A stretch of 4,476 nt of DNA from a virus (lineage: Duplodnaviria; Heunggongvirae; Uroviricota; Caudoviricetes), in IMG/VR virus record IMGVR_UViG_2627853967_000001, one strand, 5' to 3'. Of this stretch, positions 1 through 4,476 are shown piece by piece; position 1 is the first letter of the stretch; each line of letters begins with the position of its first letter. The notes below the pieces were generated by a model that was not told the origin of the DNA, searched no databases, and saw only the letters and a list, made by a program, of their open reading frames with translations. The position numbers and the translations under genes were made by a program.

Positions 1-471
1 GCTGACGTATGTTGCCACACAGGAGGGATGGTTGTACCTCGCTGGCATCAAGATGTTTATACGTGTGAAATTGTCGGCTACGCCATGGGAGAGCGCATGA
101 CAAAAGAGCTGACAGGTAAAGCCCTGTTTATGGCGCTCAGGAGCCAGCGCCCACCTGCCGGGCTAATCCACCACTCTGATCGAGGTTCACAGTACTGCGC
201 ATACGATTACCGGGTCATACAGGAGCAGTCTGGTCTGAAAACATCAATGTCGCGTAAAGGTAACTGTTACGACAACGCTCCGATGGAAAGCTTCTGGGGA
301 ACGCTGAAAAATGAGAGCCTGAGCCACTATCGTTTTAATAACCGGGATGAAGCCATCTCAGTAATACGGGAATACATTGAGATTTTCTACAATCGTCAGC
401 GTCGTCACTCTCGTCTGGGGAATATCTCCCCGGCAGCCTTCAGGGAAAAATATCATCAGATGGCTGCTTAA
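1..471 (+). pseudogene. IS3-family transposase OrfB (DDE/rve integrase core), C-terminal part; 5' end outside window; frame break near nt 50-55
   Basis: Frame 1 (28..471) encodes HHSDRGSQY...SMSRKGNCYDNAPMESFWGTLKNE...YNRQRRHSRLGNISPAAF, the second Asp and Glu regions of an IS3-family DDE core. Frame 2 (nt 2..52) encodes LTYVATQEGWLYLAGIK, the conserved first-Asp region (IS3 itself has [23 protein letters not shown]). The two halves of one catalytic core therefore sit in different frames, consistent with a 1-nt loss around nt 52 (aag|atg where aag gat is expected). Stop TAA at 469..471. Confidence 0.7.
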
Positions 472-509
472 AAAAAGAACAAATGGTAGTGTCCGCTATT
501 GCCAGTACA
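1..509 (+). mobile_element. IS3-family insertion sequence, right-hand portion (left end outside window)
   Basis: Transposase fragment followed by about 38 bp ending ...GCCAGTACA at 501..509, resembling the TGTACTG-type terminal inverted repeat of IS150-group elements. The exact right boundary (509 to about 516) is uncertain. Confidence 0.55.
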
Positions 510-518
510 CCTCACAGG

Positions 519-1943
519 CTACCTCAAGGCAGCCAGTAATTTGTCTGCATCGACAGGATTTTTGGGCGGAATGTTTTTCCGGGCTTCATGGAGTTCTGCC
601 CGTAGTTCCTGATATTTCTCATCAACAGAATTTACCTGTGACTGAGCATCCAGCGGCTGCGTGTTCTGATGATGTTCAGTTGCATCCGGTTCCATTGTTT
701 CAGCCGTTGCCTGTTCATCTGCCATTGCGCCAGATGGCTGCGTTTTTTCTTCATCATCCTGTTTTCCTTCTTCTGTTACACGTTGCGGCATCGGGGCAGA
801 GGAGCGACCGCAGGCAATATCCACGATTTCCGGATCAGGGTTGGCATGATCGGTTTCAGTCAGTACCTTGTTCAGATATTCAGTGACGTGAGCGGGGATG
901 ACCTCGATACCAATCGGTGCTTCTTTCACTGACGCAACCACGATGGCGCGGGAATAATCCATCCCGCCAGGCATGGTGATGAATTTGTCGCGGAAAACAG
1001 AAAAGGGCGGTTTATTTTCAGCGATAATTTCCTCGACACGTTTAGCGTGTGCCGGATGAAGGTTATAAATGTCCACGTCCATTGAACGAGCCAGTACGCC
1101 AGTGGCTACGTCGCGCGCCAGTGACGTCAGATCGTGAACGAAACCTTCGCCGCGATCGGTGAGGTTCCCGCCGCCAGCATTAGCGCCGGAAGCCGTGCGC
1201 GTGATGCGTGAAACACGATTTCCTTTCATCCACTCTTTTGTCAGCAGACCGCGATCGGTGTAGTCTGCGTCCATGTATGCTTCGAAAAAAGCAGTCATCA
1301 GCCCCAGGCTTGAATTGCCTGGATTAGGGAAAACTCTGTCAGTATCACGCACCAGTTTGTGGAGATCGCGAATTTCCAGCGGATCGAGCAGGCTGGTTTT
1401 GTGGGAAACAGCCAGGGCAGTAACAGCTGGTAGTTCTTCATCCCGAGCAATGTGTAATGCCTGGAGTTCGTCGCGTGAAACGTGCGTTACTGGTTTTTCG
1501 CTGCCGTGTTGCGCAAGCCAGCGAATGGGCAGTTCCTGACCGGAAACTGGCAGGAGCATGTTCTCCTCAATTTCTGTCATGTCTTCGCCGTTGACGTTGG
1601 TATTGTCAGTGCTGGCCGGTTTGTCCTGAACAGAGGGAGAAGATGCGATAAATACCATTGTGATGCCATCTTCCCCGCCTTTTTCGTAACGGTTGCAGAA
1701 TTCCGTATCAAATACGCCTTCTGGCGGGAGGTCATCAACAACGGGCAAATTGACGCGAACAGGTTTTTTAAAGTCATCTTCATCGTAGCCTGCATCGTCA
1801 ATCGCAACAGCACCACGGGAGATGGCAATGGATAATTTTTTCGCTTCAGCCCAGTAAAAACCGCCTTTAATACCGAGACGTTTTCTTACTTTGTCATTTT
1901 TTGCTTCGTAATACAGTGGGTAAACTTGTTTATCGGTGTTCAT
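519..1943 (-). CDS. recE: RecE-like exodeoxyribonuclease VIII, N-terminal region only (474 aa); probably truncated or inactive
   Basis: Long minus-strand ORF with ATG at 1943..1941 and a GAGG motif about 10 nt upstream. The translation contains stretches I recognise from Rac prophage RecE ([80 protein letters not shown]). It lies immediately downstream of racC/ydaE/kilR homologues. It ends at TAG 519..521, whereas K-12 RecE is 866 aa with a C-terminal nuclease domain. Confidence 0.65.
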
Positions 1944-2013
1944 TGTTTTTTAACCTCAACTCAGATTAAAATTACTGCGAGTGATGAATAAATGTCCCAG
2001 GTTCTTCATTCAG

Positions 2014-2043
2014 GCCTGCACAGTGTGCAGGCTTTCTTTTTTT
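2014..2043 (+). terminator. Intrinsic-terminator-like hairpin plus T-tract, oriented for the + strand (antisense to the operon)
   Basis: GCCTGCACA-G-TGTGCAGGC (2014..2032, perfect 9-nt arms, GC-rich) is followed directly by TTTCTTTTTTT (2033..2043). On the minus strand the same hairpin is followed by CUGAAUGAAG, so it is not a terminator for the operon sense. Confidence 0.4.
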
Positions 2044-2318
2044 CAGATTTCACCTTTTAATTTCATTGCAATCAGAGTTGCCAGAAATTCGGCTTTTTTT
2101 TCTGCGGGCAGATTCTTTCCTATGTGCACCAGACACATTTTTTTTACACCATCGTTAAGTGTTTTAACGTTGCCTGATGGACCGTCGATATCAACCACAG
2201 TGAATGGGGTTTCTTTATTTTCTGTCTTAATCACGTAGCCAATACGCTTTCCTTCCAGATTAACCTCGTGAACAATGTCATCAGTAGTTACAACAGTGGC
2301 TTCATAACTGGTAATCAT
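2043..2318 (-). CDS. racC: RacC-like Rac prophage protein (91 aa)
   Basis: ORF-track entry 2043..2366, trimmed to the internal ATG at 2318..2316, which has a strong Shine-Dalgarno (AAGGAG then AAAAAC then ATG). The product MITSYEATVVTTDDIVHEVNLEGKRIGYVIK... is 91 aa, the length of K-12 RacC. Stop TGA at 2043..2045. Confidence 0.7.
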   Translation of the reverse strand: MITSYEATVVTTDDIVHEVNLEGKRIGYVIKTENKETPFTVVDIDGPSGNVKTLNDGVKKMCLVHIGKNLPAEKKAEFLATLIAMKLKGEI

Positions 2319-2392
2319 GTTTTTCTCCTTAATTAAGGTTGAGCGAATCCCTGCCATTGCTGGCATAAATTCAGTTTCGGATAGTCAGTTAA

Positions 2393-2563
2393 TTAAAGTT
2401 CGTGTGCCATCTGGTCTTTTTCGGCACAGATTTCACTACAATATTTTTTCATTTCCGTCGTTGGTATAACTCCACGCATGAAATGAAGTGGTCTTGTAAT
2501 GATTTTGCTTTCTTCAATTTCTTTATTGCAAAGGTGATAAGCACATTTTATTTTCTTAGTCAT
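2393..2563 (-). CDS. ydaE: YdaE-like small zinc-ribbon protein (56 aa)
   Basis: Hand translation of the minus strand gives [56 protein letters not shown], with stop TAA at 2393..2395. It has two Cys pairs (C-x4-C and C-x3-C). Its ATG at 2563..2561 overlaps the kilR stop (TAATG) and is preceded by AAGGCGGAG. It is too short to appear in the ORF track. Confidence 0.6.
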   Translation of the reverse strand: MTKKIKCAYHLCNKEIEESKIITRPLHFMRGVIPTTEMKKYCSEICAEKDQMAHEL

Positions 2564-2784
2564 TACCATGACTCCGCCTTTACAGGTAAACCATCACGAC
2601 CGAGGAAGACTTTAATCATGCAGTCAGAAATGCATGTTTTTGTAGTCAGGCTACGAATATAAAGTTTTCGCTTTTTAATATTGTTTGCCGAGGCGATATA
2701 TGTCCGACCTTCATGAAGAATATAATCGCCAGGAGTCACACACTGACGTGGTATTTCATCAGTTCCGAAGTGATGAGCAATCAT
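2563..2784 (-). CDS. kilR: KilR-like Rac prophage cell-division inhibitor (73 aa)
   Basis: The 73-aa [76 protein letters not shown] matches the length and sequence I recall for K-12 KilR. A strong Shine-Dalgarno (AAGGAGG) lies 5 nt upstream of the ATG at 2784. Gene order kilR, ydaE, racC, recE matches Rac. Confidence 0.8.
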
Positions 2785-2844
2785 GGAAGCCTCCTTAATA
2801 AACAGTCTTACAAAGGAAATCTCAGGAAAGTTATTTAATACTTA

Positions 2845-2849
2845 GCAGC
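2845..2849. repeat. IS2 target-site duplication, GCAGC (copy at IRR side)
   Basis: The 5 bp immediately outside the IS2 terminus at 2850 are gcagc, identical to the 5 bp at 4181..4185 outside the other terminus. IS2 makes 5-bp duplications. Confidence 0.8.
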
Positions 2850-2890
2850 TGGATTTGCCCCTATATTTCCAGACATCTGTTATCACTTAA
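2850..2890 (-). repeat. IS2 right inverted repeat (IRR), terminus ...CA
   Basis: The 41 bp at the element end share GCCCC, TCCAGACA and TATCACTTA blocks with the left repeat. Confidence 0.7.
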
Positions 2891-3766
2891 CCCATTACAA
2901 GCCCGCTGCCGCAGATATTCCCGTGGCGAGCGATAACCCAGCGCACTATGCGGATGCCATTCGTTATAATGCTCGAACGCCTCTGCAAGGTTCTTTGCTG
3001 CCGTTAACCCGTCTGGTTTGGGCATGATACTGATGTAGTCACGCTTTATCGTTTTCACGAAGCTCTCTGCTATTCCGTTACTCTCCGGACTCCGCACCGC
3101 CGTGTTCTTCGGTTCAAGTCCCAACATCCGGGCGAACTGGCGTGTTTCATTAGCCCGGTAGCATGAACCATTATCCGTCAGCCACTCCACTGGAGACGAC
3201 GGAAGATCGTTGCCGAAGCGGCGTTCCACCGCTCCCAGCATGACGTCCTGTACTGTTTCACTGTTGAAGCCGCCGGTAGTCACCGCCCAGTGCAGTGCCT
3301 CACGATCACAGCAGTCCAGCGCGAACGTGACACGCAGTCTCTCTCCGTTATCACAGCAGAACTCGAACCCGTCAGAGCACCATCGCTGATTGCTTTCTTT
3401 CACGGCCACTCTGCCTGTATGTGCCCGTTTCGATGGCGGTACAGCAGGTTTTCGCTCAAGCAACAGCGCATTCTGGCGCATGAGCCGGTAAACACGTTTG
3501 GCATTGATCGCAGGCATACCATCAAGTTCTGCCTGTCTGCGAAGCAGCGCCCATACCCGACGATAACCATACGTGGGCAGCTCTCCGATAACATGGTGTA
3601 TACGGAGAAGCACATCCGTATCATCAGTGTGACGACTGCGGCGGCCATCCATCCAGTCATCGGTTCGTCTGAGAATGACGTGCAACTGCGCACGCGACAC
3701 CCGGAGACAACGGCTGACTAAGCTTACTCCCCATCCCCGGGCAATAAGGGCGCGTGCGCTATCCAC
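2861..3766 (-). CDS. insD: IS2 transposase OrfB (InsD), 301-aa frame; normally expressed as an InsCD fusion by -1 frameshifting
   Basis: The translation [23 protein letters not shown]...[29 protein letters not shown] matches IS2 InsD along its full length. It overlaps the insC 3' end in the -1 frame. Confidence 0.9.
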
Positions 3767-4134
3767 TTTTTTGCCCGTCCATATTCAACGGCTTCTTTGA
3801 GGAGTTCATTTTCCATCGTTTTCTTGCCGAGCAGGCGCTGGAGTTCTTTAATCTGCTTCATGGCGGCAGCAAGTTCAGAGGCAGGAACAACCTGTTCTCC
3901 GGCGGCCACAGCAGTAAGACTTCCTTCCTGGTATTGCTTACGCCAGAGAAATAACTGGCTGGCTGCTACACCATGTTGCCGGGCAACGAGGGAGACCGTC
4001 ATCCCCGGTTCAAAGCTCTGCTGAACAATTGCGATCTTTTCCTGTGTGGTACGCCGTCTGCGTTTCTCCGGCCCTAAGACATCAATAATCTGTTCTCCAA
4101 TGACAAGTCTAAAAACTGGTATTAAGACTATCAC
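3724..4134 (-). CDS. insC: IS2 OrfA (InsC) regulatory/DNA-binding protein; conserved 121-aa region is 3724..4089; the canonical start codon position reads ATT
   Basis: The translation ...[53 protein letters not shown]...LLPGDGE matches IS2 InsC. The codon where InsC normally begins (4089..4087) is ATT, not ATG, though it is still preceded by GGAGAACAG. The only in-frame NTG upstream is GTG at 4134, inside the left inverted repeat and with no Shine-Dalgarno. Confidence 0.8.
3766..3772 (-). other. Programmed -1 ribosomal frameshift heptamer A-AAA-AAG (insC to insD)
   Basis: Minus-strand sequence GCA AAA AAG TGG in the insC frame; a shift to -1 reads AAA AAA GTG GAT AGC, the start of the InsD frame. 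It sits exactly at the insC/insD overlap. Confidence 0.6.
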
Positions 4135-4138
4135 TTAA

Positions 4139-4180
4139 ATAAGTGATACTGGTTGTCTGGAGATTCAGGGGGCCAGTCTA
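4139..4180 (-). repeat. IS2 left inverted repeat (IRL), terminus TA; contains the palindrome TATCACTTA-TT-TAAGTGATA
   Basis: Revcomp of 4139..4180 is TAGACTGGCCCCCTGAATCTCCAGACAACCAGTATCACTTAT. Confidence 0.7.
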
Positions 4181-4185
4181 GCAGC
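4181..4185. repeat. IS2 target-site duplication, GCAGC (copy at IRL side)
   Basis: Identical to 2845..2849. Confidence 0.8.
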
Positions 4186-4364
4186 TGCTCTACGGTCATA
4201 TTTTTAATTGCGCTCCGGTTTACAAGAGCCCACCCCTGTTTTTCCAGATAAAACTGGAAAGTATCCAGGGTACAGACCAGTGCACCGTCAGGAACAGTTT
4301 CGGTGAATCTGATATTGCCGTGTTCGTCGAAGTGCACAACCAGAGTGCGACCGTTACCCGGAAT
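4181..4364 (-). pseudogene. Internal fragment (61 codons) of an unidentified prophage gene, cut by IS2 on both sides; its last 4 codons and stop lie at 2831..2849
   Basis: Open minus-strand frame across the whole 184-bp segment: IPGNGRTLVVHFDEHGNIRFTETVPDGALVCTLDTFQFYLEKQGWALVNRSAIKNMTVEQL. Removing IS2 and one copy of the duplication joins it in frame to ...LSIK-TAA (stop at 2831..2833), 47 bp upstream of kilR. The ORF-track entry 4131..4337 is this fragment read through into the IS2 left repeat. Confidence 0.45.
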
Positions 4365-4476
4365 TAGACTGGCCCCCTGAATCTCCAGACAACCAGTATC
4401 ACTTATTTAAGTGATAGTCTTAATACCAGTTTTTAGACTTGTCATTGGAGAACAGATTATTGATGTCTTAGGGCCG
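4365..4476 (+). mobile_element. IS2, second copy, left end only (continues beyond window), + orientation
   Basis: 4365..4476 is identical to the reverse complement of 4069..4180 (IS2 left repeat and insC leader), starting TAGACTGGCCCCC. Confidence 0.9.
4411..4476 (+). CDS. insC: IS2 OrfA (InsC) of the second copy, 5' part only; canonical start position 4456..4458 reads ATT
   Basis: GGAGAACAG ATT ATT GAT GTC TTA GGG CCG encodes (I)IDVLGP. The in-frame GTG at 4411 is the only upstream NTG. Confidence 0.45.
   Translation, partial: MIVLIPVFRLVIGEQIIDVLGP

Follow-up and report, generated by a model that had tools for sequence, protein, structure and literature searches.

The 3' end of a RecE-family gene in a Shigella flexneri prophage remnant has very probably been lost to two IS600 events and a deletion of about 0.5 kb. 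In the window (the whole 4,476 nt stretch of DNA analysed here) the truncated open reading frame (ORF) occupies 519..1943 on the minus strand, encodes 474 aa and ends in a TAG codon at 519..521, as the preliminary description of this DNA had reported from the ORF call. The stop codon falls within a 12 nt fragment of the left end of one IS600 copy, and this fragment is joined directly to the right end of another, complete copy. Across the complete copy lies a lambda-type gam gene, rather than the remainder of recE.

The prophage remnant and its insertion sequences

Over positions 2..4364 the window is 99.8-99.9% identical to ten complete S. flexneri chromosomes, the match stopping at 4364, and the exact 474 aa protein is carried by 692 public contigs, where it is named 'exonuclease VIII' or 'RecE family exodeoxyribonuclease [Shigella flexneri]'. 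On the strength of these matches, the source is read as a S. flexneri prophage remnant, evidently a decayed lambdoid, Rac-like one. It has as neighbours an ipaH-type gene, the product of which has LRR_TTSS and NEL domains, and a four-gene cluster for a ZnuA/ABC-type metal transporter, which we take to be sitABCD. The features of the window are as follows:

1..514, plus strand: 3' part of a complete IS600; orfB is represented by its C-terminal part, with the rve integrase core and a stop at 469..471, and 485..514 form the right terminal inverted repeat
515..526, minus strand: orphan 12 nt tip of the IS600 left inverted repeat; the minus strand reads TGAGGTAGCCTG, a 12/12 match
519..521, minus strand: TAG stop of the cut-off ORF, formed by bases 6-8 of the orphan left-end tip
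527..1943, minus strand: RecE-family 5' remnant of 472 codons plus 1 nt, containing the Pfam Exonuc_VIII region
2043..2366 (2043..2318 as annotated in relatives), minus strand: racC-like gene, from the annotation of matching E. coli prophages
2393..2569, minus strand: ydaE, from E. coli prophage annotations and PF27493 (YdaE) on the source contigs
2563..2784, minus strand: kilR, from E. coli prophage annotations and PF27398 (KilR) on the source contigs
2850..4180, minus strand: complete IS2 of 1331 bp, with ORFs matching Pfam HTH_Tnp_1 and rve, terminal inverted repeats and the annotation 'IS3-like element IS2 family transposase'
4365..4476, plus strand: a second IS2, of which the left-end 112 bp are present; it faces the first head-to-head, in opposite orientation

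The racC-like gene, ydaE and kilR (2043..2784) precede the RecE-family ORF in a single leftward prophage operon. This operon is cut off from the upstream prophage DNA by the complete IS2, which lies upstream of kilR and is flanked by a 5 bp target duplication, GCAGC (2845..2849 and 4181..4185). Only 184 bp of phage DNA separate the two head-to-head IS2 copies, such that 4069..4180 can pair with 4365..4476 as a 112 nt inverted repeat with 100% complementarity. A simple scan of the window for promoters and terminators returned counts at or below those expected from shuffled sequence.

IS600 and the orphan left-end tip

The IS3-family element that had been noticed beside the ORF was identified as IS600. 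The window ORF at 28..471 matches the Pfam families rve, rve_3 and rve_2, the matching E. coli copies are annotated as 'IS3-like element IS600 family transposase', and a 385 aa OrfAB is called within the element on the source contigs. This copy is 1264 bp long in all 12 S. flexneri-type genomes, with its last 514 bp falling within the window. The ends of the element were defined on four ordinary copies with clean 3 bp duplications (TAT, AAC, AAC and CTG), the left ends of which start TGAGGTAGCCTGAGTTTAACGG; the full left end reads TGAGGTAGCCTGAGTTTAAC... The terminal inverted repeats are TGAGGTAGCCTGAGTTTAACGGACACTCC at the left end and TGAGGTGTACTGGCAATAGCGGACACTACC at the right, with 5'-TG...CA-3' termini. 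Positions 485..514 are identical to the right end of annotated IS600 copies, and the left end is found at the far end of the element in the source genomes. By comparison with the copies having clean duplications, the complete copy finishes ...GTACACCTCA with its last base at position 514, instead of at about 509 as first estimated. The 3 bp flanking it on either side in S. flexneri are CTG and GAG, and hence do not constitute a target duplication. Therefore, although the element is clearly IS600, this copy is evidently not a simple insertion.

Immediately beyond this end, the sequence at 515..526 (CAGGCTACCTCA) is the exact reverse complement of positions 1-12 of the IS600 left end; the chance of a 12/12 match at one fixed position is about 6e-8. 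On the strand of the gene, the junction reads ...CTG GCT GCC T / TG AGG TAG CCTG / TGAGGTGTACTGGC..., in which 472 RecE-family codons and one further base are followed by the 12 nt tip and then by the complete IS600, of which the right end comes first. Codon 473 (TTG, Leu) consequently begins with a recE base and is completed by the tip, and codon 474 (AGG, Arg) and the TAG are entirely tip sequence. Uninterrupted relatives, which lack the tip, read ...GCC TCT CGC GGA... at this site, indicating that the 12 nt are foreign. The stop codon is thus, to judge from its sequence, derived from IS600, despite lying outside the complete copy. Its earlier assignment to flanking DNA, rather than to the inside of the IS, is accurate as regards the complete copy alone, and fails in that the stop is itself IS600 sequence contributed by the orphan tip. 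The left end of IS600 contains stop codons in all three frames within 13 nt (TGA at 1-3, TAG at 6-8 and TGA at 11-13), and an ORF that runs into it is therefore closed at once.

There are two IS600 left-end tips at the locus, the orphan and that of the complete copy, and they are in opposite orientations. The junction between the tip and the right end was present in 12 of the 12 S. flexneri-type genomes examined; the exact junction was absent from 5,426 complete E. coli genomes, among which a 50 nt query gave only chance matches of 94%. An IS circle junction was considered as the origin of the tip and rejected, as the tip is inverted relative to the arrangement of a right-end/left-end circle junction. 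Inversion in place of a single IS600 was likewise rejected, because the complete copy retains the 12 nt of its own left end.

The truncated RecE-family product

The 474 aa product matches PF06630 (Exonuc_VIII) alone, at residues 52-189 (E = 9e-37). The PF12684 PD-(D/E)XK nuclease domain was not found in it by Pfam, which bears out the expectation that this copy has no nuclease domain. [quoted passage not shown] Alignment to intact recE-family genes, a check proposed in the preliminary description, begins at position 527, and the remnant (527..1943) is 96-97% identical at the DNA level to E. coli recE-family genes. The remnant also lacks the C-terminal tail that is conserved among short members of the family, as described below.

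An AlphaFold2 model of the product, built from 79 divergent homologues, had a mean pLDDT of 87; with 20 close homologues as input the value was 31. The former model comprises folded blocks at residues 1-101 and 113-395, an acidic disordered stretch at around 400-437, and two helices extending up to residue 473. Going by this model, the truncation lies past the predicted folded domains, with the loss of the linker region, which bears a CxxC...CPDC motif in some homologues, and of the conserved tail. Even with both predicted folded domains kept, it seems quite improbable that the S. flexneri fragment would have any residual activity. The best reading of the 474 aa ORF is as a pseudogene fragment; the operon to which it belongs has also been severed upstream by IS2.

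The DNA across IS600 and the likely ancestor

Beyond the complete IS600 in S. flexneri, the sequence GAGCGCTTATCC... belongs to a lambda-type gam (PF06064), of which 97 of the 98 codons are present and just the 'AT' of the ATG is lacking. With this ATG destroyed, gene callers place the start of gam at a GTG within the left end of IS600. This is followed by a gene for a 365 aa AAA_24 ATPase, a family that includes the Sak4-type phage recombination proteins. The layout of tip, 1264 bp IS600, gam and ATPase is identical in all 12 genomes, the ten complete S. flexneri ones and two more found by an exact-pattern scan, and gam is the next gene not belonging to an IS in all S. flexneri loci, parted from the RecE-family ORF by the tip and IS600. 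Neither the 3' half of recE nor recT was found directly across IS600 in the S. flexneri loci examined. The preliminary description was hence correct that a simple insertion does not explain the junction, given the unequal flanks and the different DNA on the far side; the arrangement that it thought could rescue such an explanation, the recE 3' half directly across the IS with a target duplication, is lacking in both respects. An IS-adjacent deletion or rearrangement, one of the alternatives it offered, is the right class of event, there being no target duplication and gam and the ATPase gene being found where the rest of the gene should lie.

Using this gam-ATPase flank as a query against E. 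coli genomes, a search revealed prophages with these genes and no IS between them, including those of E. coli O121 201805972 (L014) and CFSAN029787 (L016). Both have the gene order Rha, YdaE, hypothetical, RecE-family ORF, gam, AAA ATPase, DUF1187, xis and int. The recE side of the S. flexneri locus matches L014 up to base 8496, at 96% identity, and the gam side resumes at base 9000, which is the G of the gam ATG, with gam and the ATPase gene being 99.5-99.7% identical. In effect, IS600 material (12 + 1264 bp) stands in S. flexneri in place of 503 bp of L014. The missing stretch comprises codons 473-646 of the RecE-family gene, among them those for the conserved C-terminal tail, as well as the A and T of the gam start codon.

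The RecE-family ORF in L014 and L016 is open over 646 aa, overlaps the start of gam and contains PF06630 only. The NCBI annotation pipeline flags this 646 aa form as 'incomplete', as it is shorter than the RecE model, but accepts a 672 aa form as intact. The latter is exemplified by E. coli M8, which has an annotated intact protein of this length (WP_129541925.1), again with PF06630 only, in the gene order kil, ydaE, hypothetical gene, RecE-family, gam, bet and exo. From these three prophages we infer that gam would already have adjoined the RecE-family gene of the S. flexneri prophage before the IS events.

A sliding comparison showed the remnant to be a mosaic, with 96-97% identity to the gam-linked short forms versus 97% to the full-length recE encoding the 877 aa protein (L001). 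As it is equally close to the short and the full-length types, it is synteny alone that points to the former. Judged by gene order, the ancestor was probably already a nuclease-less form of 646-672 aa upstream of gam, from which IS600 would have removed around 174 codons, including those of the tail. If that is correct, the nuclease domain was not lost in this lineage of events and recT never lay downstream. The ancestor implied by the preliminary description, a K-12-type recE of 866 codons followed by recT, finds no support in a locus that has gam and the ATPase gene across the IS, and of which the uninterrupted counterparts are nuclease-less.

Reconstruction of events at the locus

The anatomy of the locus is observed directly, as are the lack of a target duplication, the genes on the far side of the IS and the occurrence of nuclease-less forms in nature. 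From these we infer an order of events acting on a collinear ancestor. An IS600 copy, A, would first have entered the gene behind codon 472, oriented so that its left end faced the 5' part and its terminal sequence, TGAGGTAGCC, put the TAG in frame. The right end of a second copy, B, would then have become joined to position 12/13 of the left end of A, either through insertion of B into A or through end-directed strand transfer from a copy already situated at the gam start. Finally, a deletion adjoining B, or recombination with a further (third) IS600 copy, would have removed the rest of A together with the DNA up to the G of the gam ATG. IS911, also of the IS3 family, can target sequences resembling its own ends. 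The loss of target duplications through adjacent deletion, or through recombination between IS copies, has been documented for IS3-family elements (PMC11708052).

Intermediates with a full IS600 at codon 472, or with an IS600 at the gam ATG beside an intact ORF, were not found among the 5,426 E. coli genomes or in the scan of species-representative genomes. The exact-pattern search in the latter identified two genomes, both having the same derived structure. Strain RMDEC465, in which the match ends near the gam start, was assessed as a possible intermediate and rejected, as it proved to have an unrelated ISSso6 insertion.

Alternatively, two prophages may have been fused. The ancestor would then have been a K-12-type prophage with full-length recE and recT, and recombination between an IS600 in recE and another at the gam of a different lambdoid prophage would have deleted or inverted a long interval. 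The absence of a target duplication around the complete IS600 is to be expected of such a recombinant copy, the remnant is as similar to full-length recE (97%) as it is to the short forms, the upstream kilR, ydaE and racC resemble those of Rac-type prophages carrying recET, and IS-driven change is abundant in S. flexneri genomes (PMC7373316). However, the order of RecE-family gene, gam and AAA_24 ATPase gene exists without an IS in L014 and L016, and M8 has kil, ydaE, a hypothetical gene, the 672 aa RecE-family form and gam in succession, showing that a gam-linked short form can likewise be preceded by Rac-type genes. Furthermore, the local sequence of two IS600 events and a deletion requires the loss of just 503 bp, and the 12 nt tip is explained no better by a fusion. 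We consequently regard the joining of two prophages as unlikely, and favour the local events.

Two further readings concern the stop codon and the fate of the protein. A simple insertion of IS600 beside a pre-existing nonsense mutation, suggested in the preliminary description, would place the stop in native flanking DNA, and the stop does indeed lie 4 nt outside the end of the complete copy. Nevertheless, this appears next to impossible: the 12 nt bearing the stop match the IS600 left-end tip exactly and take the place of the native ...GCC TCT CGC GGA... of all relatives, there is no target duplication, and gam is found across the IS in place of the remainder of the gene. Were the 474 aa protein instead an intact and selected product of a naturally short gene, its exact conservation on 692 contigs, its annotation as a normal protein and its retention of both predicted folded domains would be accounted for. 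Yet all the carriers examined belong to one clonal group, S. flexneri, and share the same IS600 junction; that hundreds of contigs bear the protein is a result of clonal descent within S. flexneri and not of selection. The search for intact homologues ending at residue 474, by which a naturally short gene might have been recognised, found none; natural nuclease-less forms end at 646-672 aa and have the conserved tail, which is missing here, and the last two codons and the stop of the S. flexneri ORF are IS sequence. The chance that this is a naturally short gene is accordingly very slight.

Nuclease-less RecE-family proteins

The short forms diverge from full-length RecE just past an ...ETGE motif, at around residue 595-615 depending on the protein, and bear a tail of approximately 50 residues in place of the nuclease domain. 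A search of 5.8 billion proteins found many clusters of 657-671 aa, containing PF06630 only, that covered the full query and were 88-94% identical to it. More distant relatives were represented by 78 divergent homologues of more than 450 aa, one per 50%-identity cluster. Twenty of these have no nuclease and end in a conserved GLCANP tail of about 40 aa; a DEDD-type exonuclease (as in P0073, PF16473) is found in 12, and a long PD-(D/E)XK nuclease (as in P0095) in another 20; the other 26 have neither the tail nor either of these types of nuclease. The tail motif, QQL..AA..GLCANP....P..A, is kept in all 22 of the 22 sequences aligned, the overall identity of which to the query is 22-35%, and it is found at the end of proteins of around 490-730 aa. 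A search of the 5,426 complete E. coli genomes detected DNA encoding the tail in 106, and the annotation covering it in the listed records is RecE-family or gam. The tail-type form is situated directly upstream of gam and beside Red (bet/exo) or AAA_24 modules.

These sequences show the nuclease-less short form to be a natural architecture, not a product of decay, and the most economical reading for S. flexneri is that its gene lacked the nuclease domain before the IS600 events. Whether the N-terminal region of RecE is an autonomous phage module that has been shuffled between contexts, K-12 RecE being one fusion of several, and has a nuclease-independent role in phage recombination or end handling, seems to us evenly balanced. 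If it were so, the improvement of linear-linear recombination by full-length RecE might be due to such a role. On the RecE N-terminal region, or PF06630, the literature found says only that the function is not known, the term applied to the region in K-12 RecE being 'domain of unknown function'. A conserved stand-alone version of this protein beside gam offers a route to testing this long-unexplained region.

In itself, the truncated gene is an instance of ordinary genome decay, adding to the pseudogenes that IS elements have produced in Shigella prophage remnants. Databases call both the 474 aa fragment and the intact 646-672 aa forms 'exonuclease VIII', and none of them has a nuclease domain. 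The locus also demonstrates that an IS end can sit one short remnant beyond an apparently complete copy, meaning that a stop codon 'outside the IS' may still be IS-derived.

Comparison with known systems

RecE (exodeoxyribonuclease VIII) of the Rac prophage in E. coli K-12, a protein of 866 aa, shares with the window copy a homologous N-terminal region (PF06630; approximately 90-97% DNA identity to E. coli recE-family genes), and likewise has kilR, ydaE and racC upstream on a leftward early operon. It differs in having the PD-(D/E)XK domain (PF12684; PDB 3H4R) that the window copy is without, and in being followed by recT, whereas gam and the AAA_24 ATPase gene are downstream of the S. flexneri copy; also unlike K-12 recE, the window ORF ends in IS600 sequence at codon 474. 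The gam-linked short forms (646 aa in CFSAN029787 and O121 201805972; 672 aa in M8) are 93-96% identical at the protein level over the N-terminal 472 residues and have gam downstream, followed in the 646 aa type by the AAA_24 ATPase gene. From these the window copy is distinguished by the lack of everything from residue 473 onward, including the GLCANP tail, and by the tip and complete IS600 lying between the ORF and gam.

The recE gene of E. coli 95_0274 (NZ_CP074785.1) also contains an IS600, in the same orientation relative to the gene and with its right end abutting the 5' part of recE. That is a simple insertion at around codon 398, with an AAC duplication and with the 3' half of recE and recT across it; none of these applies to the window, which has no duplication, an extra 12 nt of left-end tip and foreign DNA across the IS. 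A complete IS without a duplication, and a deletion beginning exactly at the end of an IS, are paralleled by IS150 in the long-term evolution experiment (PMC11708052). IS-driven gene loss is well documented in Shigella genomes, and the pseudogene formation described there involves a similar host, with expanded IS600 and IS2 (PMC7373316). The window departs from the cases in both of these studies in that one boundary falls within a further copy of the same IS, 12 nt from the end of that copy, which points to an IS-into-IS step that is absent from them.

Insertion sequences in the prophage and its relatives

The features considered are as follows.

2012..2034, + strand: strong terminator-like hairpin, 10 pairs, then TCTTTTTTT
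2850..4180: complete IS2, 1331 bp, upstream of kilR
4131..4337, - strand: 68-aa ORF, starting in the 184-bp phage fragment and reading into the IS2 left end
12668..12988 in L004 (S. flexneri-type genome): gam, outside the window, across IS600
1513..2776 in L018 (E. coli O121 RM8352): IS600 copy, between paoA and ykgJ
6973..8100 in L017 (E. coli RMDEC465): ISSso6 (IS110 family), close to where the RecE-family ORF ends
7080..9020 in L014 (E. coli O121 201805972), 4781..6721 in L016 (CFSAN029787) and 4781..6799 in L015: RecE-family ORFs with inconsistent annotation

The complete IS2 of the window is flanked by a clean 5-bp target duplication, GCAGC, at 2845..2849 and 4181..4185, and is a simple insertion, in contrast to the IS600 junction. 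The left ends of this element (4069..4180) and of a second IS2 (4365..4476) lie head-to-head with 184 bp between them, forming a 112-nt inverted repeat that is 100% complementary. The second copy, starting at 4365, is missing from all ten reference S. flexneri genomes, in which matches to the window stop at 4364, and seems to be a recent insertion specific to this strain. The 68-aa ORF is a fusion made by IS2 entering a small phage gene, which is located downstream of a Rha-family regulator gene.

The IS600 copy in L018, the flanks of which do not match (CTG versus TAG), is a second example of this element lacking a target duplication. The ISSso6 of L017, positioned just beyond the gam start codon, is an independent insertion; it occupies the same short interval as the S. 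flexneri IS600. Across the latter element, gam has kept 97 of its 98 codons, with the 'AT' of the ATG replaced by the IS600 left end. Gene callers assign this region a 106-aa product with a GTG start within the IS600 terminal repeat, therefore producing, on paper, an IS-gam fusion ORF.

Diversity of RecE-family C termini

The hairpin at 2012..2034 lies between the RecE-family start and the racC-like gene, on the strand opposite to both genes. The RecE N-terminal region itself is found joined to at least four alternative C termini (proteins P0073, P0095 and P0137, amongst others), the joining point being just past a conserved ...ETGE motif.

Alternative C termini of RecE-family proteins
Type 1: K-12-type nuclease
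Type 2: longer PD-(D/E)XK nuclease, 1042 aa
Type 3: DEDD-type exonuclease (PF16473), 818 aa
Type 4: conserved GLCANP tail of around 40 aa, without a nuclease

The annotation of the 646-aa and 672-aa forms is inconsistent: the former, an open reading frame, is labelled 'incomplete; missing C-terminus' in three genomes, whereas the 672-aa counterpart in E. coli M8 is recorded as an intact 'RecE family exodeoxyribonuclease', a nuclease domain being absent from the 646-aa ORFs and the E. coli M8 protein alike.
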